From: Candidatus Latescibacterota bacterium
Lineage (GTDB): Bacteria > Latescibacterota > UBA2968
Assembly (NCBI GenBank): GCA_965222605.1
Contig: OZ244960.1
Coordinates: 2,976,001 to 3,040,000, forward strand
Reading direction: 5' to 3'
DNA: 64,000 nt
A program made the position numbers and the translations under genes. Positions 30,447-54,626 of this stretch are shown one piece after another. Every line of letters starts with the position of its first letter. The first letter of the stretch is position 1. The notes beneath the pieces are model-generated. The model saw only the letters and a list, made by a program, of their open reading frames with translations, was not told the DNA's origin and did no database searches.

Positions 30447-33044
30447 GTGAACGGTGTACAACTGCGACAGCAGTTCATTCGTTCCATTCGCGCCCCCATG
30501 GTTATCGCCTGTCTATATGCCATAATGTGCATGCCAGCAGGGGCAGATCGCCTGCAGGAAAGCTTCGGTGGGGAGGAAGATTCGCTCGCTGCGGTTCTGA
30601 TCGCAGAACGCGCCGGGCCAGATAGCGCAGACGTCTATCGGGCATTGCCTCGGGATGAGAAAGCGCAATTCTTAATAGACTTTTGGCAACGGCACAATCC
30701 CGTGGTACTGCAATTTTATTACGATTATCATATCGGGCGTCGCTACCTGACGGTATCAGACGCTTTTTTTGAACGCGGTCGATTGATACCCCGGCGCTAT
30801 AAAACGCGCGCCGTACCACCAGATACCGCCCTGCTCGACGATGCTGTTGCACTATTTGAACAGATGCTACAGGACGATGCCGACAACCGCGTTGCCCTGT
30901 GCGCGCTGGGATATTGCTTGTTAGAACAGCACAAAGGTCTGGAAGCAGAACGCATTTTTGTGCGCGTTTTGGAAAAAGACCGGCGGTTTCTCATCGCGCG
31001 ACACGGCCGGGCACTGGCGTGTTTAATCCAAAAAAAACAGGTGCGCCGCGCACTGAATTTTTTTCAGGACACCGTATCTCTCGACGCGAAATACGAGGCG
31101 GCGTATTACAATTTGGCGATGTGCCACCTGGCGATGCGCAGCGTGGATATGGACCATCATTTTGGCAATGTGGTCAAGCGCTTCCCGCAACACCGCGATG
31201 CGTATTTTAAGCTGGGGATATTTTATGAATCGCTCTATTATTATGAAAAAGCCGTCAAGGCATTGTCAAAGCAGGTCGCTGTAAATCCAGCGCACAGCAT
31301 AGCAAGGGGTAGATTGGCGCGCGTGGCTATGGAATTGAAATATTTGAAACAAGAATTGCACACCACCACAGAACTGCGCGATCTCGCCCAGAAAGATCCC
31401 GAGCGTTATCTGCCACTCCTGGGCGCACAATATCTGGAATCGGGTGCGTACGAGCAGGCAGAAGCATCCTTTTCGCAATTTTTATCCCTCTTGCCGCAAA
31501 ATGAACGCGCCCTGTACGAAGATGTCACCTTGCTCCTATCGGCACAAGAATTTGAGACCTTTCGCATGATGGGAAAAGATGAGAAACGCGCATTGACCGG
31601 TTTGTTCTGGCGCAAAATAGACCCAACACCCACCACACCTGTTAATGAGCGCAGGTTGGAACACTACCGGCGCGTGAATTACGCGATACAAAACTTTTTC
31701 GAAGGCCGAATACCCTGGGATGCGCGCGGCGATGTATATATCCGTTTTGGTCATCCCGATCACAGAAGCTGGTCCGATCACCTCGTATTCGAAACCAATG
31801 CAAAAGTGATTCGGGTAAAAAATCGACTTATGGACCTCGCGGGAAATGCACTGCATGAAATCGTCCCTACAACATCGCTGCAGATAGAATCGTCTTTGGG
31901 CGCAAGCACCGTAATGAAGGTAACACCCGAGGTTCGGGGGCTGCCGATATTTCCCCTGCCGCACCAGGGAGCGTTATTTCGAGATGGCGCGTCTTTGAAC
32001 TACAAGTGGGAAACCTGGATTTACGCCCATATTGGCGAGGGATTTGAAGTGACATTTCTCGACGCCCTGGGCAATTTCGATTTTCAATTTCCCCAGCCGC
32101 CTATTGACTCGCCCAATCGATTGCTGTGGCTGCACCTCGCACCCGAAGCCGTGGTCGCACGGGTCGTCAACCGCACGCCCTCTGTTTACCGCTATCCATA
32201 TCCCGGAGATCCAATGCCGCTGCTTATGTCCGTAGCAGATTTCCAGGGAAATGGACGCGATACCCGCCTGGATGCCTTTATCGGCGTACCATGGAACGCA
32301 CTGAAAACGCAAAAACGGGGAACACAGATATCGGCTTCGGTAAATCGAATGTGGGTCCTCTTTGACGCACAGGGCACAGAAATTGCCCGCGACAGCCTGA
32401 ACACGCGAGCAACACAGCCCGAAACAGTTGACGACCCCGGCGTTTTATGGGTGGATCAGGTCACAACAGAAGTTAAACCCGGCCACTATCTAATGGCTGT
32501 GCGCGTAACCGACCCGGCTTCGGGAAAATTGCAAATTCACCGGCAACTCGTCGATGTAGAAGCATACAATGCCTCGACCCTGATGGTAAGCGACCTTGTC
32601 GTGGCGGGAAAAATTGCAACAATAGAAGCCCGTACAGAAGGCAAATTCATCCGAGACGAACTCGAAGTGCTCCCCCTGCCGTCACACACCTTTGCCCCAG
32701 AACAGCCAGTCTATCTGTACTATGAAGTGTATAACCTCTTTAGAGATGACACAGGACAAACGCATTACCGCGTGGATTATGCCGTACGCGGCAGCAAAAA
32801 TGCCGGCGCCCGGTTGCTAAAAGGCATCGGCACATTGCTGGGCATATCTGAAAAGCAAGAAGGGGTGCAAGTATCTTATGAACATCGGGGTAATACGGAA
32901 ACAGAACCCGTATATGTAGCCCTCAATGTAGCGGCAAAACCGGGACAAAAACTCACAATTGGCGTAACCGTAACCGACCTGAACCGCCCGGGAAAGCCAA
33001 CAGCGACAAAAGATATTTGGGTAGCGATAGGAAGTGAGAAGTAA
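30447..33044 (+). CDS. Exported GWxTD-like domain protein with TPRs (start GTG 30447 or ATG 30420)
   Basis: FWRKIDPTPTTPVNERRLEHYRRVNYA, PWDARGDVYIRFGHPD, C-terminal YLYYEVYNL. Confidence 0.85.
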   Translation: MNGVQLRQQFIRSIRAPMVIACLYAIMCMPAGADRLQESFGGEEDSLAAVLIAERAGPDSADVYRALPRDEKAQFLIDFWQRHNPVVLQFYYDYHIGRRYLTVSDAFFERGRLIPRRYKTRAVPPDTALLDDAVALFEQMLQDDADNRVALCALGYCLLEQHKGLEAERIFVRVLEKDRRFLIARHGRALACLIQKKQVRRALNFFQDTVSLDAKYEAAYYNLAMCHLAMRSVDMDHHFGNVVKRFPQHRDAYFKLGIFYESLYYYEKAVKALSKQVAVNPAHSIARGRLARVAMELKYLKQELHTTTELRDLAQKDPERYLPLLGAQYLESGAYEQAEASFSQFLSLLPQNERALYEDVTLLLSAQEFETFRMMGKDEKRALTGLFWRKIDPTPTTPVNERRLEHYRRVNYAIQNFFEGRIPWDARGDVYIRFGHPDHRSWSDHLVFETNAKVIRVKNRLMDLAGNALHEIVPTTSLQIESSLGASTVMKVTPEVRGLPIFPLPHQGALFRDGASLNYKWETWIYAHIGEGFEVTFLDALGNFDFQFPQPPIDSPNRLLWLHLAPEAVVARVVNRTPSVYRYPYPGDPMPLLMSVADFQGNGRDTRLDAFIGVPWNALKTQKRGTQISASVNRMWVLFDAQGTEIARDSLNTRATQPETVDDPGVLWVDQVTTEVKPGHYLMAVRVTDPASGKLQIHRQLVDVEAYNASTLMVSDLVVAGKIATIEARTEGKFIRDELEVLPLPSHTFAPEQPVYLYYEVYNLFRDDTGQTHYRVDYAVRGSKNAGARLLKGIGTLLGISEKQEGVQVSYEHRGNTETEPVYVALNVAAKPGQKLTIGVTVTDLNRPGKPTATKDIWVAIGSEK
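30451..30477 (+). repeat. 27-bp hairpin mini-element copy 1 (in frame)
   Basis: ACGGTGTACAACTGCGACAGCAGTTCA. Confidence 0.85.
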
Positions 33045-33107
33045 GAAGTGAGCACAGGCGCAGCCTACAACGAAGCGTAGCGAGTAACGCCACCCAACGC
33101 CACCCGC

Positions 33108-33142
33108 GCGGTGTACAACTGGCCGACTCTCAGGCCAGTTCA
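33108..33142 (+). repeat. 35-bp hairpin mini-element copy 2
   Basis: GCGGTGTACAACTGGCCGACTCTCAGGCCAGTTCA within the CACCCGCG/CGCGGGTG inverted repeat. Confidence 0.85.
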
Positions 33143-33177
33143 CGCGGGTGCTTCTTTACTTTTCACACTTCACACTT

Positions 33178-34161
33178 CTAAGCTGTCCCAACTTCGCGGG
33201 CGACTTTGGGGCGGCGGAGTTTCCAGATCAGACCATCCAGAACAAAGTGGGCAAACGAAGTCCCATAGGCAAAAAAGAGGAAGGCAAAAAGGGAATAGGT
33301 GTAAAAACCATAGAGAATGCCGCAGATAACAGCGGTAAAGAGAAATGTATTGCGTACAATATGGCTGGCGGCCTTATTGAGAAGTGGCGCGTCAAGAGCC
33401 GATGTGCGGACTTTATTTTTTATCGTAAGCGCGACCAGAGCGATGTATTCAGAAGCGTGATTGATACTGGTGGCAATATAGATGGCGCCAGCCGACAGGG
33501 TGGGACCAATGCCGTAGAGAAAGACCACAGAGCCAAAAAAGAGCAGTTTGGGAACGCTGATACCCTGGGCACCGCGAAATTCATAGACGAGCCAGGCCAG
33601 AGTGACCAGAATAGCCAATCCGTATAAAATGTGGGAGATAAGGAGCGGAGGCGTGAAGTCGAGCAGATTGCGAAGATAGTGCATGACCTTGACATCGGCT
33701 TCAGAACCAAAAAGGTAAAAGAAACCAGCCAAACCCCAGAGATACATCGTCCAGGCATCGAGGCGTTTGTGACCCCATTGAGCTTTGCCCGAGTAGATGC
33801 GGAGAATGCCGTATTTCTGACGAACAAAGTGAAAATAATTAAAAAGGTACCAGAAGGCGAACATCTCGGGTTCGTCAATTCGAAAAAAATAACAAAGACC
33901 CACAAACACAAAGCACAGGATGGGAATAAGCGTATAAAGGACGCGCGCGCGGCTAAATTCAGCGCGATCTAAATAGACCAGCAGAAACGTAAAGTACCGG
34001 TGCGTCGCAAAAAGAAACGTAACAGAGACAATGCGGATGGTATCGAAGTATTTGGGAAACAGGTAGGGGGCAAAAAAGAAAAGCAACCAGCCCAGGGTGA
34101 TGCAGGAAAGATCAACAACGGGCGTAACAACCCAGAGCGTGTGTGTTTTTTCAACGGACAT
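33178..34161 (-). CDS. Uncharacterised polytopic membrane protein
   Basis: ~8 TMs, FHFVRQKYG, HFVLDGLIWKLR. Confidence 0.7.
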   Translation of the reverse strand: MSVEKTHTLWVVTPVVDLSCITLGWLLFFFAPYLFPKYFDTIRIVSVTFLFATHRYFTFLLVYLDRAEFSRARVLYTLIPILCFVFVGLCYFFRIDEPEMFAFWYLFNYFHFVRQKYGILRIYSGKAQWGHKRLDAWTMYLWGLAGFFYLFGSEADVKVMHYLRNLLDFTPPLLISHILYGLAILVTLAWLVYEFRGAQGISVPKLLFFGSVVFLYGIGPTLSAGAIYIATSINHASEYIALVALTIKNKVRTSALDAPLLNKAASHIVRNTFLFTAVICGILYGFYTYSLFAFLFFAYGTSFAHFVLDGLIWKLRRPKVAREVGTA

Positions 34162-34211
34162 AGGTAGTAATTCCCACTTCTTGTATCTTTGTGTCTTTGT
34201 GTGAGGCCCTC

Positions 34212-35450
34212 TCACTTCTTTCCCGACCGCAAATCCAGACAAACCATTTCAGTGTGATTACGAAGATACAGTCTGCCATTAGCCAGCGTGGGTGGCGTCC
34301 AGCACCGCGGAGACAAAACCTGAGCGCTGGCTTTTTCTATGTACGCTTCTGGTATCGCCTCCACAAGAGCCAGTTTGCCCTGTTCTCCCAGGACGATCAG
34401 GTACCCATCGGCAAAGATGAGGGACCCCTTCTGAAAGCCGCGTTTGCGCCATTGCTCCTGCCCGGTCTCCGCGGCAATACACTTGAGAATGGCATTGTCA
34501 AAGCCATAGAGGTACCCCTTGCGATGAATAGACGTGGCAAAATGGTTTTTCATACTGCGATTGCGCCATACTTTTTTAACTGCAAACTGGCCGTTTTGAA
34601 AAATAAGCTGGATAACCGCCGCGCCTTTGCCATAGCCCGAAGAGATAAAGAGTCTATCCGGAGCGAGAAAAACAGGCGTCGCGGCATTGACATCGGGACC
34701 CGTTTGCCAGGGATGCCGCCACAAAAGTCGGCCATCTTTGGCAGCGACACCGACCAGACCAGAGACTGGAAAAAAGACGATTTGCCGGATATCAGAAACA
34801 GTAATAGCAATGGGTGACGCATAAGAAGGCGCGTCATCTTGAGAAGTCCATGCAACCCTGCCGGTAGTTTTATCAAAGGCGATAAAGGCTTTTCCAGAAG
34901 AACCCCCAACCTCGACGACCAGCAACTCGCCTTCCAGCAAAGGAGAAGTAGAAAAGCCCCAATGAGGGGGATCACTTATGAATTCAGTTTGAAAATGGTG
35001 AGACCATACTATTTCTCCGTCCTCAACATCAATTGCATAAAGCTGTCCGTTTGCACCCAAAAAGAAAGCCCGTTCTTTGTCAATAATGGGAGTAGATCGG
35101 GGACCGTTCCCGCCCTGCCAGTCTGAAAAATTGCTCCCGGTCTTAACTCGCCAGCGTTCTTGCCCAGTAGCGGCATCGAGACATACCGCGTATTCATCTT
35201 TCCCTTCTGCAAACATGGTATAGACTGCGCCCCGTGCAATGGCAATGCTCGAAAAACCCTCGCCCAGCGGTGTTCGCCAGAGAACAACAGGTCCGGAATC
35301 AGACCATTTTTTGAGCAACCCCGTTTCAGAGGAAACCCCATCGCGATTGGGGCCAAACCACTGCGACCAATCCGCAGCAAAGCCATTGCCCGTCAGGACA
35401 ACAGAGCCTGAGAGCAAGGCAATCAAAAAGGTGATAATGAGGATGCGCAT
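34212..35450 (-). CDS. PQQ-binding-like beta-propeller repeat protein, exported
   Basis: Signal peptide, DWSQWFGPNRDG, GNGPRSTP, WTPPTLANGRLYLRN. Confidence 0.9.
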   Translation of the reverse strand: MRILIITFLIALLSGSVVLTGNGFAADWSQWFGPNRDGVSSETGLLKKWSDSGPVVLWRTPLGEGFSSIAIARGAVYTMFAEGKDEYAVCLDAATGQERWRVKTGSNFSDWQGGNGPRSTPIIDKERAFFLGANGQLYAIDVEDGEIVWSHHFQTEFISDPPHWGFSTSPLLEGELLVVEVGGSSGKAFIAFDKTTGRVAWTSQDDAPSYASPIAITVSDIRQIVFFPVSGLVGVAAKDGRLLWRHPWQTGPDVNAATPVFLAPDRLFISSGYGKGAAVIQLIFQNGQFAVKKVWRNRSMKNHFATSIHRKGYLYGFDNAILKCIAAETGQEQWRKRGFQKGSLIFADGYLIVLGEQGKLALVEAIPEAYIEKASAQVLSPRCWTPPTLANGRLYLRNHTEMVCLDLRSGKK

Positions 35451-35511
35451 GGGAACTCCTCCTCTGTGTAAGAATCAAGTCACATAATCCGTGATTACTA
35501 TAATATAGGAC

Positions 35512-36555
35512 TTACGCAAGCACCATGTGAATAGTAGGCGCTTTGAGTTGTTGTTTCAAATAATCAGCTAACAAGCCGTATTTGACCTGATAAACGGATT
35601 GTCGTGTTTGATAGGCGACCTGTGCAAATCGCACCCAAACGAGGAAGGCACATCCGATGTGATTGCGAACAATGCGTGGCAATCGACATTGACACTTTTC
35701 AAGACCCGTCACTTGTTTTGCTTCTCGGTGAAATTGCTCAATTTTCCAACGCCAGTGACACGCCTGTTGTGCCACTTGGGTATCGTTTTGGGCCTGGTCG
35801 TTAGTCACGACATATTCCGTGCGTCTGGTAGAAGACATCACCCGAAATAATTTCACTTTATGGTCTCTTGGAAAGCCTCTGATTTTAATGCGTTTGCCAG
35901 CTTTTGTCTCGCTGACCGTCCAATCTAAGCGGTCTATGCGTTGATAGGGTTTAGCACCTGAAGAATCATCCACACGCCGATTCGATTTGAGAGGGCAGTA
36001 ATAGGTTTTTTGCAGTTTCTCAATGTGTAGCATGACCGTCCTGGTGGCATACCAGCTATCCATTAACACGGTCTGAAAAGGCAGTTTTCTGGCATAGACC
36101 AAGACAGATAACATCTCCTGTAGATGATCTAACTTGGTTTTGCCATCCCCCTCAGGGTCATAAATGCGATAGTCAATGAAAAAGAACCGATCCTGATCGG
36201 GATGAACTGCTGGCGCAGTTGTACCCCGTTCGACATAAACGCAAGTGACGACCCCGATGCCGTTGATGACCCCTTTGGCATTGCCGCTATATTGACGCCG
36301 CACCAACGCAATCTTGTGGGCATGACGCTTGTCCAGCACTGTGTCATCGAAGATCACATAGCCCTTTGGGGTCACTTGAATGTGGTCTTTGACGTGTTCC
36401 CACACCAGGCGAGGCGGGATGCGATCACCGGATAGGTAACGGTTGATCATATCATGACTGAACCTTTGGCTGTGGTCTGCGAAATGGGTCAGCGTATAGT
36501 TGATTGGACTGCTCAGCAAATACTGACAGTAATCCAAGCGGGTTGGTTTATCCAT
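35512..36555 (-). CDS. IS701-family DDE transposase
   Basis: FDDTVLDK, LMDSWY, RWKIEQFHREAKQ. Confidence 0.9.
   Translation of the reverse strand: MDKPTRLDYCQYLLSSPINYTLTHFADHSQRFSHDMINRYLSGDRIPPRLVWEHVKDHIQVTPKGYVIFDDTVLDKRHAHKIALVRRQYSGNAKGVINGIGVVTCVYVERGTTAPAVHPDQDRFFFIDYRIYDPEGDGKTKLDHLQEMLSVLVYARKLPFQTVLMDSWYATRTVMLHIEKLQKTYYCPLKSNRRVDDSSGAKPYQRIDRLDWTVSETKAGKRIKIRGFPRDHKVKLFRVMSSTRRTEYVVTNDQAQNDTQVAQQACHWRWKIEQFHREAKQVTGLEKCQCRLPRIVRNHIGCAFLVWVRFAQVAYQTRQSVYQVKYGLLADYLKQQLKAPTIHMVLA
36203..36229 (-). repeat. 27-bp hairpin mini-element copy 3 (in frame in transposase)
   Basis: Reverse complement ACGGGGTACAACTGCGCCAGCAGTTCA. Confidence 0.85.
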
Positions 36556-36674
36556 CCTCACCTCCTCGGTGCTCAGGTTAGGCTCCAATCCCGTCAATTT
36601 AAAGATTGGAAAACCTTGGGGCTATTGTTTTGCGTAAGTCCTAATAATAATAAATGGGTGATAAAAAGTGAGAG

Positions 36675-36781
36675 GTAGGAGGAAAATCCTTTTCCCGACC
36701 CGGATCGCGGCAGGGATGCCGCTCCAACAGTAGTCTTGAATTGGCCTACCTATCCGTGTTCATCTGTGTTCATCTGTGGTT
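36675..36781. repeat. GTAG-type REP pair plus TTCATCTGTG tandem repeat
   Basis: GTAGGAGG...TCGCGGCAGGGATGCCGCTCCAAC; TATCCGTGTTCATCTGTGTTCATCTGTGGTT. Confidence 0.55.
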
Positions 36782-38007
36782 GCATTTCCCACCCGCTCCA
36801 ATTCCTGAACAACAGCCATATGCCCTTTTGCCCTCGCCCACATCAGGGCTGTAACCCCATCTTTATCCTCAATTGCGACATCGGCACCGCCTCTTAAAAG
36901 CGCGCGGACCGCCTGGACATGTCCTTCAAACGCGGCGGCCATCAACGGCGTGCGGCCCTCGCGGTCGGGCGCATTGACATTTGCGCCCACTTCCAATAAA
37001 AACTCGATTCGTGCGGTTTCACCATCCCAGGCTGCACCCATCAAAGCCGTATTCCCCATATTGTCCCTAACGTTGAGATCTGCGCCACCTGCCACAAGCA
37101 CCCGCACAATTTGGCGATGATCTCGTAAAACAGCCCGCATCAAAGGCGTTTCGCTGGCACTACCTCTAATATCGGGAATTCCGCCTTTTGTCAGAAGCGT
37201 ATCGACAATAGCGGTATGACCTTTGAACGCGGCCAGTAGCATGGGAGAATCGCCAAAATTATCCCTGGCATTGGGATCAGCACCTACATTCAGGAGGGCA
37301 TCCACCATATCTGTTTGACCTTCGACTGAAGCCCAGGTGAGAGCCGTCCGGTTGTCCTTATCTCTGATATTGGGATCCGCACCGTTTTCAAGGAGAACTT
37401 TCACTGCATACGTATGACCTGCAACAATCGCGCTCATCAGAGCCGTGCGCTCGTCGTTGTCCTGCGCGTTGACATCCGCGCCCGCGTCTATCAGAGCTTG
37501 AAGCGTAGTTGTGTGACCTTCTACTGCCGCGGGCATCAACGCAGTGGCTCCATGGGTGTTTTTTAAATGGAGATTCGCGCCTTTTTTCAGGAGAACGTTG
37601 ACGATATCTGTATGCCCATCAAAGGCAGCGGACATCAAGGCGGTGGCACCGTGTTTGTCCTGAATATTGGGGTCAGCTTTGCCCGACAAAAGGGCCTGCA
37701 CCGTCTGGATATGTCCTTGAAAAGCCGCGACAATCAAAGCCGTTTCCCCGCTCATACCCTGAGCATTGGGATCGGCACTTTTTTTTAAAAGCGCATTGAC
37801 GATATCTGTATGCCCACCTCTGGCTGCAACCATCAGCACGGTAGTACCGTATTTGTCCCGAGCATTTGCATTATCGCCAGCACTTAGACGCGCCTGTACA
37901 CCGGACAGGTTTCCCTTTGCTGCGGCTTCGAGGAGTTGTGTGCCATTGGCATGCGCCGCTGCAGAAAGGCTGAGGACAAGGAGAAATGTAAAGGTAATCC
38001 TGGACAT
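36760..38007 (-). CDS. Secreted ankyrin repeat protein (~11-12 repeats)
   Basis: Signal peptide ending AAAHA, repeated GxTALMxAAxxGHxxxVxxLLxxGAD. Confidence 0.95.
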   Translation of the reverse strand: MSRITFTFLLVLSLSAAAHANGTQLLEAAAKGNLSGVQARLSAGDNANARDKYGTTVLMVAARGGHTDIVNALLKKSADPNAQGMSGETALIVAAFQGHIQTVQALLSGKADPNIQDKHGATALMSAAFDGHTDIVNVLLKKGANLHLKNTHGATALMPAAVEGHTTTLQALIDAGADVNAQDNDERTALMSAIVAGHTYAVKVLLENGADPNIRDKDNRTALTWASVEGQTDMVDALLNVGADPNARDNFGDSPMLLAAFKGHTAIVDTLLTKGGIPDIRGSASETPLMRAVLRDHRQIVRVLVAGGADLNVRDNMGNTALMGAAWDGETARIEFLLEVGANVNAPDREGRTPLMAAAFEGHVQAVRALLRGGADVAIEDKDGVTALMWARAKGHMAVVQELERVGNATTDEHR

Positions 38008-38066
38008 ATAGAAAAAGTAAAAGGTCCCCGAAAAAAGTCAAAGAAGATTCGGCGTCCAATTCATGC

Positions 38067-38939
38067 TCACGGAACGGGAATATTGAGATCAAAGGTCTGG
38101 CCGAGCCACTGATAGTAGAAACGTTGTGATGTGTCTTGCAGAATCTGGTCTTTCCAGCCAGCGGCAAGACGTTCGACCTCGGCAGTATTGCCGGCCATAC
38201 ACAGCGCGTAAAGATACAGGTAGCGTAGCGCCGGATCGGCAGACTCTGCGCGTTGGTAATACTGTGCAGCCAGAGTATAGTCGCGCTCGGCCAGCGCGCG
38301 TGCAGATAGATAGGGAAGATAAGGCGTTTCCGCATCGCCCTTTTTCAAGCGGGTATCAACCGCATAGAGCAGATCGTCCTGAATCTGGAGATGCCACAGC
38401 GGGAGAGTCCGCAAATCGGTCTGCGTGTGAAGCGTGTGAAGCGTAGCGATGCGAGTCCCCTGATCATGTATTTCGTCAGCCTGGGAAATTAGTGCAGCCT
38501 CGAGAAGGCGCTGTGCTTCAAAATAAACGAGCGTGCGCATCCGCATGTCATGAGGCCAGGCATTGTGAATAAAGGTACTCTTTTCAAAGCGCTCGCGAGT
38601 GAGCAGGGGATTCATCCAGCGGGCGTAGAACGCTTGATGGGGTTCGCGGTTAAAAAAACCCACAGAAAGGCGTTTGGGATAATTATCTACCAGCGGCGGG
38701 GTATCGCGCGTGAGCGCGTTGAGATGGTCGGCGTCAGACATAAAGAGCGCACCGAGTTGCTCGGGTTGCTCCAAACCGAGGGCGCGAAGTTCGGAACGCA
38801 CGACAGGATCGCGCCACTGTCGGCTAAAAAAGACCTCAGATAGGGAATAGGACGCATTTCGAGAGCCAGCGAGCATCCAGTTAAAACCCGCCCCAGCCCA
38901 AAGAGAAGCGTCTTCAAAAACATTGCAAAACGCGCGGAT
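38067..38939 (-). pseudogene. C-terminal fragment of a spermidine synthase-like membrane protein
   Basis: Reads IRAFCNVFEDASLWLGAGFNWMLAG...PPLVDNYPKRL; no plausible start or RBS at the break point. Confidence 0.6.
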
Positions 38940-45492: not shown

Positions 45493-45527
45493 AAAAAAGA
45501 GCGCGTCAATAAAGACTCGCTCTTTCA
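45492..45527. terminator. Bidirectional terminator
   Basis: AAAAGAGCG...CGCTCTTT between convergent genes. Confidence 0.55.
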
Positions 45528-45554
45528 TTTAACGAACTCAAGTCGCGGCGCTTA

Positions 45555-46847: not shown

Positions 46848-46865
46848 AAACTATTTCCCGAAGTC

Positions 46866-48785
46866 TCACTCTTCCACCAACGCCAATTTTTGATCGTAAA
46901 CAGCCCGATCCTTTAACAGACGGACAGCTTCCTGGAACTGCTTATCACCCTTCAGCGTCGCTAAAATTTTGCCGTTGGTACCCCACACGCGATTGGCCAA
47001 TGCCCGTTCAATCTCCAGACGGATATACGGCTCGGCCTTATTATAATCGGCTTTGCGCTCGCGCTCTGCAGCCTGTGACAATTGACTGAGTGCAGTTATC
47101 GTGTCGTCTGTCAATACATCCTTTTCTTTTAGTGATTTTTCGACCTCTTGCACTTGAATTTCTGTATCCGTTTTATAGTCAAAACCCTCGGCATTAGCTG
47201 AATCTGCCATGAAAGTCCAGAATTGATCGACAATATCTTCGGGCAATGTATAGTCTTCAAACCGATTGGGGAATGATTGCGTCGTTGCAAAATCAACCGC
47301 AAAATCAAAAATCGATCCCTTGCGCAATAACGCCATCACCAGCCGCGGCCTGCGCTCTTGTTCAACCACCACATCGGGCTTAATCCCACCGCCGCCATAA
47401 ACTTTGCGCTTGTTCACGCGCGTTGTAAATACCTTTTCGGGATCGATATTTTCAGGCCCATTATGCTCGCTGGAAGCCAAACCCAACAACCCTTCCAATC
47501 GCATTCCAAGTACTTCTTCAGCCAGGTCCTTGTCCAGATCAAATCTTTCCTCGAGTTCCGTAATAACATCTTCGCGCCGTTCAGCCTGACCAATAATGCC
47601 AAAGAGTTCATAAGCCGAGACCTGTGTTGAATTTCCCACTGTAATCTCAATGGGGCCGCCGCGATATCGGCGTTTCTCTGCATTGTGAATGCTGCGCCCG
47701 CTCGGCGTATAATAGGCTGCTGTTGTCAGCTTCAAAGCTTTATCGCCCTGGCGACCCAATTGGCGCACGGTTTGTACAGATCCTTTGCCAAATGTTTGCG
47801 TGCCCACAATCAACCCCCGATCCCAATCCTGAATTGCCCCTGCGACAATTTCTGATGCACTGGCACTGCGCTCGTCAACCAGGATCACGAGTGGAATATC
47901 GGCGGGCAATATGGTGTCGTGTCGCGTTTTGTGACTGCGGCTCTGATCCGAAAGACGACCTCTGGTTGACACGACCAGCCGATTGGATGGCAAAAACTTA
48001 TCGACCACATCAACCGCTGCGTTGAGCAAACCGCCCGGATTGCCGCGCAGATCCAGAATAATCCCCGTGGCACCATTATTGAGCGAGTTGATCAATGCCT
48101 GTTGCAACTCCCCTCCTGTGCGTTCAGTAAATCGAGAAGAACTGAGCCAGGACATGGAAATATAACCGATATCGGGATCGACTTCGCCCGGAATTTGTAC
48201 ACTTGAAATGTCAATGCGCGCCCGAGTAATTGGCTGATCAAATGGTTCCTTCATTCCTGGTCGCTCAATTTTAATGGTCACGCCAGCACCTGGATTACCC
48301 CGCAAAATATTGACAATTTCGCGCAGGTCCTTGTCAAAAGTCGGATCCCCGTCAATGGCGATGATCCGATCTCCCACAACGAGCTTCGAGGTGTCGGCAG
48401 GCGTGTCTTCAATAACATTCATCACAACCGGAGGACCATCATCCTTCCCTCGCTTGCTGATCATAATGCCCAGTCCACCAAATTTGCCCTGTGTTTCTAT
48501 CTGAAGTTGCTTGAGGTCATTGCTATCAAAAAAGGTAGTATAAGGATCCAGATCCCACAACATGCCGGAAATGGCAGCCTTGCTCAAATCCTCTGGCTTC
48601 AGCTCATTGACATACTGGTTGAAGAGCAGGCGGTAGGCTTCGTTAATCTCCTCAAAACCGCGCCCCAATTGCTCATAAGTATCTTCGCCGGTCACCAACC
48701 GGGAATCGAGTACCAGATAAACACCCAAAACACCAATTAAAGTTGTAAAAATGGCGATTCTTCTTCGGAATCTCGCTCCAAACAT
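46866..48785 (-). CDS. S41 family carboxyl-terminal protease (CtpA-like)
   Basis: LDPYT, FGGLG PDZ, DLRGNPGG, SASASEI, TFGKGSVQ, YYTPSGR; GGAGG RBS before ATG 48785. Confidence 0.93.
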   Translation of the reverse strand: MFGARFRRRIAIFTTLIGVLGVYLVLDSRLVTGEDTYEQLGRGFEEINEAYRLLFNQYVNELKPEDLSKAAISGMLWDLDPYTTFFDSNDLKQLQIETQGKFGGLGIMISKRGKDDGPPVVMNVIEDTPADTSKLVVGDRIIAIDGDPTFDKDLREIVNILRGNPGAGVTIKIERPGMKEPFDQPITRARIDISSVQIPGEVDPDIGYISMSWLSSSRFTERTGGELQQALINSLNNGATGIILDLRGNPGGLLNAAVDVVDKFLPSNRLVVSTRGRLSDQSRSHKTRHDTILPADIPLVILVDERSASASEIVAGAIQDWDRGLIVGTQTFGKGSVQTVRQLGRQGDKALKLTTAAYYTPSGRSIHNAEKRRYRGGPIEITVGNSTQVSAYELFGIIGQAERREDVITELEERFDLDKDLAEEVLGMRLEGLLGLASSEHNGPENIDPEKVFTTRVNKRKVYGGGGIKPDVVVEQERRPRLVMALLRKGSIFDFAVDFATTQSFPNRFEDYTLPEDIVDQFWTFMADSANAEGFDYKTDTEIQVQEVEKSLKEKDVLTDDTITALSQLSQAAERERKADYNKAEPYIRLEIERALANRVWGTNGKILATLKGDKQFQEAVRLLKDRAVYDQKLALVEE

Positions 48786-48798
48786 GGGGCGCCTCCAG

Positions 48799-48825
48799 GC
48801 GGTGTACAACTGCGTCAGCAGTTCA
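48799..48825 (+). repeat. 27-bp hairpin mini-element copy 4
   Basis: GCGGTGTACAACTGCGTCAGCAGTTCA. Confidence 0.85.
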
Positions 48826-48872
48826 TTTTTGATAAACGGCAATCAATTAAGGGTTGAAATCATAACGGCTAT

Positions 48873-49499
48873 TTAGTTCTCCAGCATTAGATCGGCAACC
48901 GCCTTCTTAACGTCTTCAAACACATCGCTTATGGGCCGAGAGCCATCAACCCGAAAAATGCGGTCGGGTTCAGATTTGTATGCCTCTTTAAAACCCTGTC
49001 GAACCCTCCGAAAAAATGCTTCATCTTCCGACTCAATGCGATCTCCCCCGGTTCCCCAACCGCGTTTTCGCGCAGTCTGTAAATCAACATCTAACCAGAT
49101 TGTGATATCTGGCATCAAACCACCCGTAGCCACGTTTTGAATCATTCTCAAGTCATCGAGATCTAATCCGCGACCATAGCCCTGATAAGCCAGTGTAGAA
49201 TCGACATAGCGATCTGAAATCACCACTTTGCCGGCATCCAGAGATGGTCGAATCAATTCGTTGACGTGCTGCGCGCGATCCGCTGAAAATAAGAACATCT
49301 CGGCGATTGCATCAATCTCGTCCTGCGATTGCTTTTCGAGTGCAAGACGCCGAATTCCCTGACCGAGGTCTGTATCACCCGGCTCATAAGTAAATACAAC
49401 ATTATACCCACTACCCCGCAGATAATCAAACAGCAACTTGGCCTGGGTGCTTTTTCCGCCTTTATCAGTGCCTTCAAATGAAATAAAAAAACCGGACAT
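48873..49499 (-). CDS. tmk: Thymidylate kinase
   Basis: FISFEGTDKGGKSTQ, ADRAQH, SDRYVDSTLAYQG. Confidence 0.95.
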   Translation of the reverse strand: MSGFFISFEGTDKGGKSTQAKLLFDYLRGSGYNVVFTYEPGDTDLGQGIRRLALEKQSQDEIDAIAEMFLFSADRAQHVNELIRPSLDAGKVVISDRYVDSTLAYQGYGRGLDLDDLRMIQNVATGGLMPDITIWLDVDLQTARKRGWGTGGDRIESEDEAFFRRVRQGFKEAYKSEPDRIFRVDGSRPISDVFEDVKKAVADLMLEN

Positions 49500-49522
49500 T
49501 TGTTCCCAATTTTTCTGCAAAG

Positions 49523-49555
49523 AAAAAAAGAACCCGGCGGTACCTCCGGGTTTTG
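49523..49555 (-). terminator. Intrinsic terminator upstream of tmk
   Basis: Minus strand AACCCGGAGGTACCGCCGGGTT + T-tract. Confidence 0.6.
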
Positions 49556-49580
49556 TCATCCTGTCTTCGACAATTAGGCC

Positions 49581-50174
49581 TTATGATTTTGTCAGCTTGC
49601 GAAAGTGAATGACCCGCTCCATCGCGGTAAAATTTCCCAACAGCGCAATTGCCCAGACCACAACGATCAAACTGATATCCCCAACCAGAGGGACGATCAC
49701 CCCGCCAGCACCAATGGCAATAACGCGCTCGGGACGCTGCATAAACCCAACTTTGCACTCCGCCCCAAGACCCTCAATGCGCGCGCGCACATAACTCACC
49801 ATCAGAGATCCTGCCAGTGCAAAAAAGACCGCCGAGCTTGTCCAGAGATCATCAGCTCGTATAAAACTGATCGCAATGCCAAACCAGATGAAAATTTCGG
49901 AATATCGATCAACAGTGGAATCGAGAAGCGCACCAAATTTGGATTCTGTCTTGCCCTTGCGCGCCACCTGCCCGTCAAGAAAATCAAAAATACCCGCAAC
50001 AAGCACCGTCAACCCGGCCCACATATACAATCCAAAGCCAAAGAGCACGGCGGCACCTATATTGAAAACAAACCCGATCATGGTCAACAAATCGGGAGTA
50101 AAGCGTTTTCCGACGAGATATTCTGTAGAAGGTGCCAAAATCTCGGCGACATCATCTTTAACTTTTTCAATCAC
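49581..50174 (-). CDS. CDP-alcohol phosphatidyltransferase (PIP-synthase-like)
   Basis: DFLDGQVAR...FGALLDSTVDRYSE, SYVRAR.EG, RPER. Confidence 0.92.
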   Translation of the reverse strand: MIEKVKDDVAEILAPSTEYLVGKRFTPDLLTMIGFVFNIGAAVLFGFGLYMWAGLTVLVAGIFDFLDGQVARKGKTESKFGALLDSTVDRYSEIFIWFGIAISFIRADDLWTSSAVFFALAGSLMVSYVRARIEGLGAECKVGFMQRPERVIAIGAGGVIVPLVGDISLIVVVWAIALLGNFTAMERVIHFRKLTKS

Positions 50175-50341
50175 TGTTAAAACCCACGAATAGTGAAGTT
50201 TTTATTTGAATTTTATGACGTTAGCACAAATCCAAATATAGGCCAATTTTGGAGGTGTTGCAAGCGAAATTTCCCTTCAACGCAAGTTGAAAAACCACCC
50301 TAAAATTTCTGCATTTCAGTGGCAGAAAACACAAGATTTAT

Positions 50342-50446
50342 TGTGGAAAATTATGTGGATAACTTTTCCTCAATCGGACATTTTCAGTCCTTTATTGAAA
50401 AAAATCAACGATTTAAATTGTTAACACTATTATCCACTTTTCCACA
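50342..50446. promoter_or_regulatory. DnaA-box cluster flanking a consensus IHF site
   Basis: TGTGGAAAA 50342, TGTGGATAA 50354, AATCAACGATTTA 50403, TTATCCACT 50430, TTTTCCACA 50438. Confidence 0.75.
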
Positions 50447-50493
50447 TTCAATGCGACAAGTTCCCTTTGATTGCTTTTCCTCCTCACATCTGT

Positions 50494-51183
50494 CTATCGA
50501 AACACGTCTATGCGCTTGATCACCACAGGTTTTATTGGTCGATCTCCCGGTGCGGTTTCGACCATTGCAATTTTGTTGACCACATCCATTCCCTTTGTCA
50601 CTTCTCCAAAAGCAGTATATTGAGTGTCCAAATTGGGCGAAGTCCCATGCATAATGAAAAATTGTGACCCGGCACCAGCCGACACATCTGAAATGCGTGC
50701 CATAGAAAGAATGCTCGGTACGTGTTTTATATCATTAAATTCATGAGGGATATGCACGAGCGGTCCCCCCATTCCATAGTCAGATGGATTATCGTCCTTT
50801 GAATTTGGATCGCCTCCCTGAATCATGAAATTTTTAATTACGCGATGAAACTTGGTATTGTCATAAAACCCGCTTTCTGCTCGCGTGATAAAGGCAAAAC
50901 AATGAACAGGTGCCTTTTCGGGATGGAACTTCAATTCGATATCGCCCATATTCGTCGCGATACGCGCCTTCACATTCCGAATCTGATTTACCAGAAACAG
51001 CATTCGGCCTCCGATTTCGCCGGCTCGCTCAATCTGGTTTTGTGCCTTGTTCAAAGAGCTTTTCAACGACCGATTCTCATTGTTCAACTTTTCATTGGCT
51101 TGTTTTAAATCTTCCATTCCGCTACCTCCACAGGCCGCTATCGAAAGACATAGCCCTAAAAAAACAAATCGTTTCATAGACAT
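50494..51183 (-). CDS. Cyclophilin-type peptidyl-prolyl isomerase, lipoprotein
   Basis: IAAC lipobox, FHRVIKNFMIQGGDP, SMAR, GSQFFI, YTAFG. Confidence 0.93.
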   Translation of the reverse strand: MSMKRFVFLGLCLSIAACGGSGMEDLKQANEKLNNENRSLKSSLNKAQNQIERAGEIGGRMLFLVNQIRNVKARIATNMGDIELKFHPEKAPVHCFAFITRAESGFYDNTKFHRVIKNFMIQGGDPNSKDDNPSDYGMGGPLVHIPHEFNDIKHVPSILSMARISDVSAGAGSQFFIMHGTSPNLDTQYTAFGEVTKGMDVVNKIAMVETAPGDRPIKPVVIKRIDVFR

Positions 51184-51409
51184 TTCTCCTTTAAATCATA
51201 TTTCTAAATATAAGCCCAGACGCTCATCATAGGCAACAATCCGTTTGCACATCTCAGCGAAAATAAACAACCACCTGTCTGCAGGTGATTGTTACAATGA
51301 CTAAGCGTGGAAACAATACCCCCCAAATCTCTCTTGACAGTGGTTCTCCTCCACGCTTTATTGTTCGCGGAACAACACAAACCTCCACATTCCCAAGGAC
51401 AACATCATT

Positions 51410-52270
51410 ATGCGACTTGTTACATTTACTCACCAGGGACAGCGTCGGCTCGGTGCTCGATCAGGCGATTCGATCATTGACCTCAGTGCTGCCGATCCTT
51501 CGATTCCCTCCACCATGAAAGAATTTCTCGAAGCAGGCGATAATGCCATTTCCAGAGCCCAGGCAGTGATTGATAAAGGGGGCCATGCCATTTCTGCAAC
51601 AGATGTCACTGTTCATGCTCCCATCGACAATCCAGAAAAAATCATTTGCATAGGTCTCAACTACGCCGATCATGCCGCCGAGAGCGGTATGCCCATTCCC
51701 GACGAACCCATTGTCTTTTCCAAATATGCATCATCCATCATCGGACCCGATGAGAATATCGTGGCTCCCAGCGCGAGTTCCCAGGTTGACTACGAAGTCG
51801 AGCTTGTTGTCGCTATTGGCAAACGCGGTCGCAACATCTCTGAAGAAGATGCCCTCAACCACGTTGCGGGCTACATGGTCGGACACGACGTGAGTGCTCG
51901 TGATTACCAGCTCGAAAAACCAGGAGCACAATGGATGATGGGCAAAACCTTTGATACATTTGCTCCAATAGGACCTGATCTGGTCACAACCGACAATGTG
52001 CCCGATCCTCATAATCTGGGCATTCGCTGTATCCTCAATGGCGAAACAGTGCAGGATTCCAACACCTCTCAACTGATTTTCGGCGTACCCAAACTCATTG
52101 CTTATCTCACACATGTATTCACGCTTACCCCCGGAGATTTGATTTTTACCGGCACACCTCCCGGTGTGGGTATGGGGCGTGAGCCGCAACTCTGGCTCAA
52201 ACACGGCGACCATGTGATATGTGAAATTGATGGACTGGGACGACTCGAAAATCCGGTTGTTTCAGATTGA
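51410..52270 (+). CDS. Fumarylacetoacetate hydrolase family protein
   Basis: KIICIGLNYADH, DYEVEL, DVSARD, GDLIFTGTPPGVG. Confidence 0.93.
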   Translation: MRLVTFTHQGQRRLGARSGDSIIDLSAADPSIPSTMKEFLEAGDNAISRAQAVIDKGGHAISATDVTVHAPIDNPEKIICIGLNYADHAAESGMPIPDEPIVFSKYASSIIGPDENIVAPSASSQVDYEVELVVAIGKRGRNISEEDALNHVAGYMVGHDVSARDYQLEKPGAQWMMGKTFDTFAPIGPDLVTTDNVPDPHNLGIRCILNGETVQDSNTSQLIFGVPKLIAYLTHVFTLTPGDLIFTGTPPGVGMGREPQLWLKHGDHVICEIDGLGRLENPVVSD

Positions 52271-52327
52271 GATATCCCAAAGTCACGGAAAACACTTCCA
52301 GAGGATTTGATGTTTGGGGAGGGAATG

Positions 52328-52678
52328 TCAAACAGAGGGCAAACGGCTCCGCAATTCTGTCAGCTCGCGTTCGAGATGATCCAATCTGAACGAAACTTCA
52401 CGCTCGTGCAACAGCCGATCAGCAGTACCCATACCATCGTGTATGATCGAAAGCCTGCGCTTGAGCTGTTCGCAGATGTGACCGACTTCTGATATATCGG
52501 CCTCGACCTGAGCCTGGCGTGTGCCTATTTTGTGAATCGCATCCTGCACATTTTGGAGGTCAGATCGAATTTCTACAAATTGCCTGGCGACCATTTGAGC
52601 GAAATTTTCTTGCGAAGACTCAATGGCGTCGCGAACGGTTTCTCGAATGAGATCGAGTTCGCCAGCATCAAAGGCCAT
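52328..52678 (-). CDS. Hypothetical coiled-coil protein
   Basis: MAFDAGEL... heptad-rich; the upstream ORF extension is low-complexity. Confidence 0.55.
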   Translation of the reverse strand: MAFDAGELDLIRETVRDAIESSQENFAQMVARQFVEIRSDLQNVQDAIHKIGTRQAQVEADISEVGHICEQLKRRLSIIHDGMGTADRLLHEREVSFRLDHLERELTELRSRLPSV

Positions 52679-52979
52679 GGGCGAATTCCTGAAAAGACAG
52701 ATGGAGTACGAAAAAATATCCGTACTTGAATGCTGGAAAAAAAAGGGGGAGAAAAAGGGGAAATGGGGAGGATAAGCCTGACGATCTGGGGAGAAAGGGG
52801 AATCAGAGCAAGATCGGTTTACCCTCCCCACCCAATAAAGAGAGACTTGAATTCAGGCAAAATATAATTTAACTGAATCGCGTTTCTCTTTATTTTTCAG
52901 GACATTATGTCCTGAACACACACAAACAAGTGTGTGTTCAGTGCCTTCTGTGTGGGGAGTAACAGAATGCACTGACCAA

Positions 52980-53008
52980 AATATACACTGTCAAGTTTGT
53001 GTTGTCAA
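52980..53008 (-). promoter_or_regulatory. Near-consensus sigma70 promoter
   Basis: Minus strand TTGACA-17 bp-TATATT. Confidence 0.7.
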
Positions 53009-53127
53009 GAAAAAATGTTTTCATCTAACTCATCTATTTCTCAAGAATTTAGCTTGCCACGCGGCTCTTTTCAATTCATATTATGTTATGAAACTTTTAA
53101 ATGCGACTGACCTTTTGGGAGGGGTGT

Positions 53128-53631
53128 ATGAGGTTTGGTGAAATAATAAAACAAGCTCGTACTGGCCGATTTAGCCAGCAGGCTTTGGGTGAAAGTATTG
53201 GGGTGTGGGGCACTTATATCTATCAAATAGAAAAAGGCGAACGCATACCATCCGACGACGTGTGTACGAATCTTGCAAAAGCACTCGATCTCGATCCTCA
53301 ATTGCTTCTTTTTTTGGCGTATAAAGAACGCGCACAGAAAACAACCGAAGGCCGCAGACTTTTTACACAGATGGAAAAACTGATGACAGACCCTGTCATT
53401 AGCCAGGTAATTGCCGACCCAAAAATGCTTGACTCAGGCATTGTCAAAGCACTTCAGATTCCCAATATCCGCAAGGTACTCAAGAACAAGCAGTGGTGCG
53501 AAGCCCTGAACGCGAGTGCTTCAACTACAGACCGGGATATTCCCGAACTCATTAAGATTATCACCCAGATCCCCGCCCAACAATGGCAAGCATTGCTCAG
53601 TACAGCAAAAGCTTTTGCAGGCATAACTTGA
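53128..53631 (+). CDS. XRE-family helix-turn-helix regulator
   Basis: FGEIIKQAR..SQQALG....TYIYQIEKGERIPS...LAKAL; GGAGG RBS. Confidence 0.88.
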   Translation: MRFGEIIKQARTGRFSQQALGESIGVWGTYIYQIEKGERIPSDDVCTNLAKALDLDPQLLLFLAYKERAQKTTEGRRLFTQMEKLMTDPVISQVIADPKMLDSGIVKALQIPNIRKVLKNKQWCEALNASASTTDRDIPELIKIITQIPAQQWQALLSTAKAFAGIT

Positions 53632-53738
53632 TCATATTAATGAAATTGAGGTGTATAATTTTCTACAGGATATTTCTGAAAGAAGCCACAGAATAGCGAT
53701 TACCATTACTGGCATGGCCTGAAATCCCCATTAAAATC

Positions 53739-53777
53739 AAAAAAGCCCGTTTTCTCGCGTTGAGAAACGGGCTTTTT
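53739..53777. terminator. Bidirectional intrinsic terminator
   Basis: AAAAAGCCCGTTT...AAACGGGCTTTTT. Confidence 0.8.
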
Positions 53778-53844
53778 ACATATTCTCTCAGGTTGTGATT
53801 ATCAATAATAAGTTAATCTACACTTCTATTTACTAACTTCCTAA

Positions 53845-53860
53845 TGTTTCACGTGGAACG
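53845..53860. promoter_or_regulatory. parS site 1
   Basis: TGTTTCACGTGGAACG vs consensus TGTTTCACGTGAAACA; origin-proximal. Confidence 0.8.
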
Positions 53861-53892
53861 GTTTACAACTGGTCGCAGTCCAGACCAGTTCA
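53858..53892 (+). repeat. 35-bp hairpin mini-element copy 5 (in parS 1; supplies the rsmG stop)
   Basis: ACGGTTTACAACTGGTCGCAGTCCAGACCAGTTCA. Confidence 0.85.
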
Positions 53893-54528
53893 ACGTCTTT
53901 TAAGAAAGACAAAGGAACGTTTTCGTTCCATAAATGGTAAAGTCAAAGTGGCTTCAGTAGCATAGATGTCGCGTGGAACACCGTTTGTGAACTCGCTAAG
54001 AGCACATGGCCCTTTCATTGAAATAAGCACACCGCGGGGGGCGAGAAAAGGTTCAACCCAATTCCAGAGTTGGGGAAGCCGTGCAACTGCACGGGCTGTA
54101 CCAATCAGAAATTTACCCGCGAATGAGGAATCTCCAATAAGGTTCTCAGCGCGACTTCTGATAGCGAAAGTGCTTTGAAGGCCGAGCGCAGTAATCGTTT
54201 CCTGGAGAAAAAGGGCTTTCATGCGGGCGGGTTCGAGGAGATAAACTTCGAGGTCGGACCTCATAATCTTGATCACAATACCCGGCAGACCAGCACCCGA
54301 ACCCAAATCGAGGAGAGGTCCATCCATTGGAAGGTGCGGTACCAGCGAGAGACAATCGAGAATATGACGCTCCCATATAAAATTGCGGTCATTGCGGGAG
54401 ATCAATCGAACGCGAGCCGACCAATTGGTAAGCAAATTGACGTATTGCTGGAGCCTGACGACCTGTTCCTGAGAAAAAGAAAGGTCAAAGGACCTCTCCG
54501 CAAGCTCAATGGCCTCATTGGGTTGCAT
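53890..54528 (-). CDS. rsmG: 16S rRNA m7G527 methyltransferase
   Basis: RHILDCL, LDLGSGAGLPG, RAE, TARAVA, MKG. Confidence 0.95.
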   Translation of the reverse strand: MQPNEAIELAERSFDLSFSQEQVVRLQQYVNLLTNWSARVRLISRNDRNFIWERHILDCLSLVPHLPMDGPLLDLGSGAGLPGIVIKIMRSDLEVYLLEPARMKALFLQETITALGLQSTFAIRSRAENLIGDSSFAGKFLIGTARAVARLPQLWNWVEPFLAPRGVLISMKGPCALSEFTNGVPRDIYATEATLTLPFMERKRSFVFLKRR

Positions 54529-54575
54529 TGGATATACCTTTAGAAAGACGTAAGACGACCGCCCAACCCCTCTTA

Positions 54576-54626
54576 TGTTTCACGTGAAACGGTGTACAAC
54601 TGGTCGTTTCTCAGACCAGTTCAACA
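54576..54626. promoter_or_regulatory. parS site 2, interrupted by the mini-element
   Basis: TGTTTCACGTGAA[35 bp]ACA; excision restores perfect TGTTTCACGTGAAACA. Confidence 0.88.
54589..54623 (+). repeat. 35-bp hairpin mini-element copy 6
   Basis: ACGGTGTACAACTGGTCGTTTCTCAGACCAGTTCA. Confidence 0.88.

Follow-up and report, generated by a model that had tools for sequence, protein, structure and literature searches.

A very small hairpin repeat of Candidatus Latescibacterota that replaces a single adenine at its insertion sites

The window analysed here, a 64,000-nt stretch of a Candidatus Latescibacterota chromosome (assembly GCA_965222605.1, contig OZ244960.1, positions 2,976,001 to 3,040,000), carries six copies of a short hairpin-forming repeat, hereafter the mini-element. 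Its copies are true insertions of a non-autonomous element at many unrelated sites: at least one empty homologue was found for 31 instances, and the comparison of filled and empty sites reveals a simple junction rule. Within the target S-A-A-W, a block G-A-R...C takes the place of the first A, and nothing is duplicated. As one target A is lost, a block of 28 or 36 nt results in a net gain of 27 or 35 nt. We regard the repeat as a family of tiny mobile DNA units, non-autonomous and of the kind formed by repetitive extragenic palindromes (REPs) and small dispersed repeats (SDRs), which would be mobilised in trans as a single-stranded hairpin substrate (probability of about 0.6).

The conserved unit reads 5'-GAR-CGGKG-TAC, followed by AACTG with one to three variable paired bases, the loop, CAGTT and C-3'. 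From the initial G to the final C the inserted block comprises 28, 30 or 36 nt, with a loop of 4 or 8 nt that ends in A. The pattern TACAACTG-N4-16-CAGTTCA gave 6 matches in the window and 0 in 100 dinucleotide-preserving shuffles, and all six copies of the preliminary description of this stretch were recovered with their places, strands, stems and loops (Table 1). The lengths of 27 and 35 bp given there hold as net gains; the unit begins 2–3 nt further 5', so that the block has 28 or 36 nt, and a third class with a net gain of 29 nt (33 of 157 instances) had not been listed. A 13-nt foot, CGGKKTACAACTG, is exact in each of the six window copies, all of which are perfect; decayed copies number 0 in the window. 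Two foot matches with 2 mismatches, at 21533 and 38878, were judged not to be elements. As folded single-stranded DNA, short copies form a stem of 6 bp with a 4-nt loop (−5.2 kcal/mol), and long copies a stem of 8 bp with an 8-nt loop (−6.7 to −9.4 kcal/mol).

When the window and the listed loci of other genomes (numbered with the prefix L) are taken together, 157 instances fall into three size classes with net gains of 27, 29 or 35 nt. The inner part measures 6 nt in 58 short copies, 8 nt in 33 middle copies and 14 nt in 59 long copies, and it is irregular in 7. Copies of the middle class, whose stem has 7 bp and whose loop has 4 nt, were seen in other genomes and not in the window. The invariance of foot and basal stem is partly imposed by the search pattern; the loops are unconstrained by it, and the flank positions lie outside it. 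Among 129 de-duplicated copies, the positions before CGGKG are S (88%), G (85%), A (86%) and R (96%), and those after CAGTT are C (95%), A (95%) and W (83%). Loops are highly variable, with 27 different sequences in the 59 long copies and 16 in the 58 short ones, nearly all of them A-final. The variable stem pair of the long form is GCC/GGC in 36 cases and GTC/GAC in 17, with 2 wobble pairs and 1 mismatch, which bears out the stem covariation noted before; both stem types occur together within single genomes. Relaxed searches for basal-stem variants added two that are fully compensated (AACTA/TAGTT in L075 and AACGG/CCGTT in L096) and about four that are uncompensated. The compensatory changes show that hairpin pairing is under selection, the number of independent events being small.

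Several sequence contexts document the insertions. Copy 3 interrupts a transposase gene of which three insertion sequence (IS) copies in another genome (L010, L050 and L106, ~77% identity) lack exactly 27 nt: the empty site reads TATGTC-A-ATCC, the filled site TATGTC-(GAACGGGG..CAGTTC)-ATCC, with a block of 28 nt. A ~300-nt repeat upstream of paralogous SBP_bac_5 solute-binding genes contributes two separate filled/empty sites, GTAGGC-A-AAAAATGCC and AGCGC-A-AATCGC. In a second repeat of ~230 nt, the site GTCGAAG-A-ATCTC holds the long form when filled, and empty homologues exist. The site GGTCGGG-A-AAAGG is empty in L067, occupied by the short form in L006 and by the long form in L092. For copy 1, the n-region is contiguous (MYNGKRKIRSICERV...) in the homologue P0002 (79% identity), which lacks the nine residues VNGVQLRQQ of the window protein. 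The empty homologues, of copy 3 and of the 31 instances overall, uphold the earlier claim of non-autonomous insertion without target-site duplication. The insertion is not clean, as had been stated, since one target A is removed. A signal peptide was said to be restored upon removal of the element, which is correct for copy 1 and incorrect for copy 4, which lies upstream of the likely ATG of an S41 peptidase gene.

The one-A replacement in S-A-A-W also accounts for tandem arrays, for the copies next to parS-like sites and for the nine-residue insert of copy 1. Tandem arrays obey the rule numerically: when a 9-mer unit loses 1 nt and gains 30, the period becomes 38, and with an 8-mer unit that loses 1 and gains 28 it becomes 35. 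Arrays of such 8–9-mers were observed in L069 (64–167), L070 (818–878), L065 (3424–3508), L088 (about 4240–4470), L076 and L077, with the units CGAATAGA, CGAATCAA, AAGAATTA and GGCACAAAA. Successive units can each hold an element, which creates periods of 35, 38 or 51 and a superficial likeness to tiny CRISPR arrays.

The two parS-like sites were called against the consensus palindrome that we take to be parS. With the element in place they read TGTTTCACGTGAAACG and TGTTTCACGTGGAACG, with 15 of 16 positions matching at 54576–54591 and 14 of 16 at 53845–53860, so they are barely disrupted; this is a consequence of the 5' end of the element mimicking the end of the site. The first base of copy 6 is A rather than G, and removal of 35 nt therefore gives back an exact 16-nt palindrome. 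The perfect parS site reported earlier is thus recovered at copy 6, but both sites are nearly intact as they stand.

Table 1. Positions of the mini-element copies, their host genes, parS-like sites and GTAG-tagged REPs in the window
Feature	Position	Strand	Remarks
Copy 1, short form	30449..30476	+	28-nt block GAACGGTG-TAC-AACTGC-GACA-GCAGTT-C, net +27
Host of copy 1, GWxTD/TPR ORF	30420..33041		copy in the signal-peptide n-region, in frame
Copy 2, long form	33106..33141	+	stem AACTGGCC/GGCCAGTT
Copy 3, short form	36204..36231	-	in frame within the DDE transposase ORF, +9 residues
Host of copy 3, DDE transposase gene (DDE_5 / DDE_Tnp_1)	35512..36594	-	ORF still open despite the insertion
Copy 4, short form	48797..48824	+	strand opposite to the S41 peptidase gene (46866-48839, -)
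parS-like site	53845..53860		2 mismatches to the palindrome; last 5 nt = first 5 nt of copy 5
Copy 5, long form	53856..53891	+	stem AACTGGTC/GACCAGTT; adjoins the parS-like site 53845-53860
parS-like site	54576..54591		1 mismatch to the palindrome; last 5 nt = first 5 nt of copy 6
Copy 6, long form	54587..54622	+	adjoins the parS-like site 54576-54591
GTAG-tagged REP	2357..2384	+
GTAG-tagged REP	21109..21139	+
GTAG-tagged REP	61666 region	-

The remaining window copies add detail to this picture. Copy 2 is located downstream of the open reading frame (ORF) that hosts copy 1, between 8-nt arms (CACCCGCG / CGCGGGTG), and its 5' junction is atypical, with GCG in place of GAR. The 5' junction of copy 4 is likewise atypical (AGG); this copy lies just upstream of the GGAGG and likely ATG of the S41 peptidase gene. 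Part of the window is 89% identical to locus L116 of a Candidatus Latescibacterota metagenome-assembled genome (MAG), and the site of copy 4 is filled at this orthologous locus too, with a difference of one loop base and one 5' base. Copy 5 is found between a helix-turn-helix gene and rsmG/gidB, copy 6 between rsmG/gidB and mnmE.

A scan of species-representative genomes with element and foot as pattern returned at least 116 stretches. All of the listed ones stem from 16 Candidatus Latescibacterota MAGs, and as far as sampled the family is specific to this phylum among the matches listed. The sampled sequence amounts to ~1 Mb of roughly 90 Mb, about 1% of these genomes. In the listed loci, each species shows its own dominant size class. 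The element-bearing records comprise chromosome-scale assemblies as well as short-read (k141-named) contigs, and these two assembly types exclude an adapter or platform artefact. A blastn search of a 44-nt stretch including copy 6 against plasmid and phage collections gave no match, and no part of the window matched Rfam at gathering thresholds. In literature text the foot sequence turned up in unrelated papers only, with nothing relevant on Latescibacter hairpin repeats. A cyanobacterial origin of the stretch, or a link to the cyanobacterial repeat HIP1, was considered and rejected: GCGATCGC has 2 matches in the window versus 1.9 expected, and gene content and related loci indicate Latescibacterota.

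The majority of copies are intergenic, only copy 3 being inside a Pfam domain. Insertion into genes, as described earlier, is therefore the exception. Sorted by neighbouring ORFs of at least 150 codons, the de-duplicated sites fall between co-directional genes (41), convergent genes (15) or divergent genes (14), in long open frames (20) or at locus edges (28). Relative to co-directional neighbours the element points in the same direction at 23 sites and in the opposite direction at 18; no bias relative to transcription and no positional preference relative to genes is apparent from these counts. Flanks are periodic (7–9 nt) at 12 of 115 sites and palindromic (at least 6 bp) at 7 of 115 versus 0.8 expected, so that the suggested insertion into palindromes applies to few copies but is enriched over chance. 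The length test was passed by 31 element-spanning open frames, 16 of which were scanned against Pfam. A mostly intragenic location was rejected on this basis: 3 of the 16 contained a Pfam domain, which in all three started after the element, and the others lie in unsupported frames.

Two longer repeats that host mini-elements deserve description in their own right. The ~300-nt repeat was observed upstream of 28 SBP_bac_5 ORFs at 24 loci in three genomes (L005, L009, L010, L018, L020, L023, L027, L039, L046, L048, L050, L055, L066, L078, L080, L082, L086, L106, L108–L111, L113 and others). It includes a long hairpin rich in A/T, CCTACTTTTTTT..AAAAAAAAGTAGG; a common leader, a regulatory region and a miniature inverted-repeat transposable element are possible identities. 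Copies of the mini-element that share descent at this upstream site (L005, L009, L018, L078, L109 and L110) have the loops CCCA, CCTA, CTTA, CCGA and CCAA within nearly identical immediate flanks; loop bases thus appear to change faster, often from C to T, which would fit single-strand exposure. The second repeat begins with GTCATTCTGAGCGGAGCGCAGCGGAGTCGAAG and occurs in L015, L019, L025, L033, L042, L054, L060–L062, L067, L083, L098 and L104. In L025 it starts ~100 nt after a TnpB-like ORF (OrfB_IS605 and Cas12f-like TNB domains, L025:2930-4060). Given this proximity, the repeat may form the right end of an IS605-family element or be derived from such an element.

The window covers the chromosomal origin region, with dnaA (58765–60144), yidC, mnmE and rsmG/gidB. 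The minimum of the cumulative GC skew lies near 50–54 kb, just upstream of rsmG-mnmE-yidC and dnaA, and the window has no parS-like sites besides the two in the region of ~50000–58700, both of which carry the element. The window also contains many sulfatase genes, an ankyrin-repeat gene, one DDE transposase gene and two DUF6785/DUF6784 genes that are each followed by a TPR gene. The latter form a tandem duplication at 24581–33041, in which the membrane protein gene precedes a TPR protein gene (PMT_2-TPR in the first, GWxTD-type in the second unit). In 6 further loci, DUF6785 genes are neighbours of elements (cluster of L012:3742-5790). The ankyrin-repeat gene (36760–38004) shows internal 198-nt periodic repeats at 37170–37866.

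For comparison with known systems we drew on passages about REP-type repeats and RAYT transposases in PMC3733652 (Di Nocera et al. 2013), PMC3479197 (Messing et al. 2012) and PMC3116915 (Bertels & Rainey 2011). Those of PMC3733652 describe REPs with a tag, stems of 5–13 bp, loops of 2–20 nt, sub-families with complementary stems, intragenic and in-palindrome copies, and a predominance of singletons in some families. The mini-element shares the size range of 20–40 nt, the high copy number (6 in 64 kb; 157 in the ~1 Mb sampled), the 4-nt unpaired tag directly 5' of the stem, the variable loops and the compensatory stem sub-families; its mostly extragenic location with occasional intragenic and in-palindrome copies, and its presumed mobilisation in trans, are REP-like as well. 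The differences concern the tag and the arrangement. In contrast to the GTAG/CGTC tags of REPs the element has GTAC, in which T is found in 94% at position −1 whereas A and C are set by the search pattern, and the tag is preceded by a further conserved 7 nt (GARCGGK). None of the degenerate forms GYAG, GYRG, GTRG, GTMG and GTGG given in passages of PMC3733652 covers GTAC, and the strings GTAC and AACTG are absent from its main text. Unlike REPINs, which are inverted REP doublets that fold into a long hairpin, the copies are single or in direct tandem (periods 35, 38 and 51), and no close inverted pairs are present among those listed. The one-base-replacement junction defined here has no counterpart in the passages of the REP literature compared.

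GTAG-tagged REPs co-exist with the mini-element in these genomes (Table 1). In the window and the listed loci, GTAGGGG is followed by a hairpin in 81 of 118 occurrences, with sequence types that recur across genomes. Under a stricter test (stem of at least 8 bp, loop of 2–12 nt) a hairpin follows GTAG in 2.4% of cases versus 0.7–1.0% for four of five control 4-mers; the fifth, CTAG, reaches 3.1% (8 of 262). Examples are GTAG + GGGCGAGGC..GCCTCGCCC and GTAG + GGGACGGTCC..GCCGTCCC, in loci such as L006, L064, L086 and L103. L086 additionally holds a tandem array of six GTAG REPs with a period of 54 (4847–5117), a family separate from the mini-element. At five loci (L013, L057, L061, L064 and L087) the mini-element sits in the loop of a GTAG REP. 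Among 61 of these co-resident REPs, no filled/empty pairs were found.

In size and precision the SDRs of Nostocaceae (SDR1–8; Elhai et al. 2008), as far as they are described in citing papers, are the closest match. These hairpin repeats of 21–27 nt, judged to be mobile, are reported only in Nostocaceae according to the relevant passages of PMC5861425, SDR5 inserts between nucleotides 3 and 4 of HIP1 (PMC4390886), and SDRs are also cited in PMC3116915. The mini-element resembles what these passages convey, being a very small hairpin repeat with precise insertion into a short target and with filled and empty sites. It differs from SDRs, compared through citing papers, in its Latescibacterota host, its target S-A-A-W with one A lost, and its sequence. 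The preliminary description had not taken into account that the hallmarks it listed are already described for REPs (passages of PMC3733652), nor had it considered the 21–27 nt SDRs. SDRs are reportedly embedded in short tandem repeats and show compensatory stem changes, and we know of no enzyme for them. The ends of IS200/IS605 elements and their miniature derivatives, the palindrome-associated transposable elements, share with it a hairpin preceded by a short guide-like 5' foot, the lack of target duplication and a single-strand logic. Unlike these elements, which have two distinct hairpin ends (left and right end), the whole unit here is one hairpin of 28–36 nt; one target base is lost and no strand bias is seen, whereas insertion of IS200/IS605 elements takes place 3' of a fixed sequence of 4 or 5 nt and costs no base. 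Rickettsia palindromic elements, too, are palindromic repeats that can sit in frame inside genes. They are much longer than 28–36 nt; intragenic copies of the mini-element are rare, and only its +27 form can be in frame. In summary, the GTAC tag with its 7-nt extension, the single units, the S-A-A-W rule and the host phylum set this family apart, but it is not categorically new.

The search for a mobilising enzyme was based on 1034 non-overlapping ORFs from the listed loci and the window, which were clustered. Pfam scans covered 353 proteins, namely 47 window ORFs, 31 cluster representatives, 16 element-spanning ORFs and 259 near-element ORFs. The latter derive from 266 selected ORFs, of which 259 were scanned at cut-offs of 1e-8 and 1e-10 and the other 7 within the element-spanning set; ~770 ORFs were left out. 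The scan of window ORFs confirms that no candidate enzyme is encoded in the window. No RAYT gene flanked by copies was found among the 353 near-copy proteins, which represent ~1% of the genome sequence. The only relevant match near a copy is the TnpB-like ORF of L025, ~140 nt away from it. A regular expression for an HUH..Y motif, applied to 4963 open frames, returned one spurious match only.

We propose that an enzyme, which would be encoded elsewhere in the genome, recognises the tag and hairpin of the element in its single-stranded, folded state. This enzyme would cut at S|G and C|A, and the piece would be joined to a target from which one A is lost. The unit is not long enough to be a two-ended double-strand transposon, and the combination of a conserved unpaired foot with a stem fits recognition of a folded single strand. 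By analogy, a RAYT-like HUH/Y1 single-strand nuclease appears to be the most likely type of enzyme, with about one chance in three. According to passages of PMC3479197, RAYT binds the GTAG tag base-specifically, also needs the hairpin, and can cleave on either side of it. The 4-nt unpaired tag directly 5' of a 6–8 bp stem, together with the co-existing GTAG REPs, makes a RAYT-type enzyme plausible in these hosts.

Several observations weigh against this proposal. The distribution of copies shows no GC-skew bias (55 positive versus 69 negative locus-strand cases, the 8-kb skew being a noisy proxy), while transposition of the IS200/IS605 type is expected to show a replication-strand bias. Replacement of one target base is not a product of IS608-type insertion. 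The RAYT guide rule as given in passages of PMC3479197, applied to the GTAC tag, would predict a G|T cut rather than the observed junction. Neither Y1_Tnp nor a reverse-transcriptase family was detected among the 353 proteins, a weak negative in view of ~1 Mb sampled out of ~90 Mb. The HUH/Y1 link drawn initially is thus an analogy only, both the absence of Y1 from this set and the lack of skew bias speaking for caution. Furthermore, decayed copies are few: ~1 Mb contains 150 perfect feet, ~120 of which are present by ascertainment, and 11 feet with one mismatch (1 in a shuffle), while feet with two mismatches are not above chance. Finally, the size class at a given homologous site can differ between genomes, as seen for L037 versus L053, six long copies versus L115, and L094 versus eight long copies. 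Scarce decay, species-dominant classes and differing classes at one site suggest hot-spot turnover, homogenisation or selection for a host function; the first and the third of these features could speak for homogenisation or such selection instead of plain selfish spread.

Host function can be stated as an alternative to spread by a dedicated transposase. A structural or protein-binding motif of benefit to the host, kept by selection and spread or homogenised mainly by recombination or gene conversion, would be consistent with the very few decayed copies and with the orthologous site of copy 4, which has stayed filled at 89% flank identity with change restricted to the loop and one 5' base. 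Species-dominant classes and differing classes at one homologous site fit concerted evolution, and passages of PMC3479197 report that REPs bind host proteins. Still, we regard this reading as unlikely. Insertions occur in unrelated unique sequence without flanking homology (transposase ORF, signal peptide, parS-like sites), the target carries only ~4 informative bases, occupancy differs among paralogous copies, and positional preference relative to genes is lacking.

Transposition as single-stranded DNA also has to be weighed against insertion templated by RNA, in which a nick between the T's facing the target A-A would prime a reverse transcriptase that copies hairpin-containing transcripts. 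With a further nick on the other strand, one base upstream, one base pair would be lost; this amounts to target-primed reverse transcription at an offset of 1 nt. This scheme reproduces the junction exactly, with a shared 3' A, loss of the first A and no duplication, and offset nicks are known to give small target deletions in R2-type elements. The element occurs in both orientations relative to genes, so that transcripts of either strand exist, and RNA intermediates were reportedly favoured for SDRs by Elhai and co-workers in 2008. On the other hand, no reverse-transcriptase family is present among the 353 scanned proteins, no class of 5'-truncated copies is seen, and an RNA of 28 nt would be a very small specific template. 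Copying of RNA with offset nicks gives the junction, yet it is otherwise without support, and we consider it quite improbable.

A function at the RNA level, as a terminator, attenuator or stability hairpin, is very improbable. Copy 2 does come after an ORF, within a palindrome, and REPs often lie downstream of ORFs (passages of PMC3733652). However, orientations are nearly balanced (23 versus 18), divergent, convergent and tandem spacers are all used (14, 15 and 41), there is no T-run, the window has no match to Rfam at gathering thresholds, and a terminator would have no use for the conserved unpaired 5' foot. An origin as sequencing adapter or assembly artefact, for which the shortness of the sequence, its hairpin and its identity at many places could speak, is effectively refuted by the 16 independent MAG records from two assembly types, the in-frame copies within conserved genes, the orthologous site that is filled in two species, and the compensatory variants and species-specific classes.

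The mini-element is one of the smallest mobile DNA units seen. The movement of REPs and SDRs is mostly inferred from their distribution, and exact donor and target junctions are rarely available; here, many filled/empty pairs, a single hairpin, three size classes and a simple junction rule provide a concrete and testable enzyme signature. Through this finding, an uncultured phylum joins the hosts of very small mobile repeats. The element is also relevant to annotation, as it adds nine residues in frame to proteins and adjoins parS-like sites at the replication origin. More tentatively, and with the odds rather against it, the single 28-nt hairpin with its 12-nt foot could be the complete substrate of an unrecognised single-stranded DNA transposase or RNA-templated integrase that excises one target A. 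If so, the chemistry of transposition would be distinct from that of the IS200/IS605, IS91/Helitron, DDE and recombinase systems, no defined mobile DNA unit with a known junction rule would be smaller than the mini-element, and the same class of enzyme might account for the spread of REPs and SDRs.

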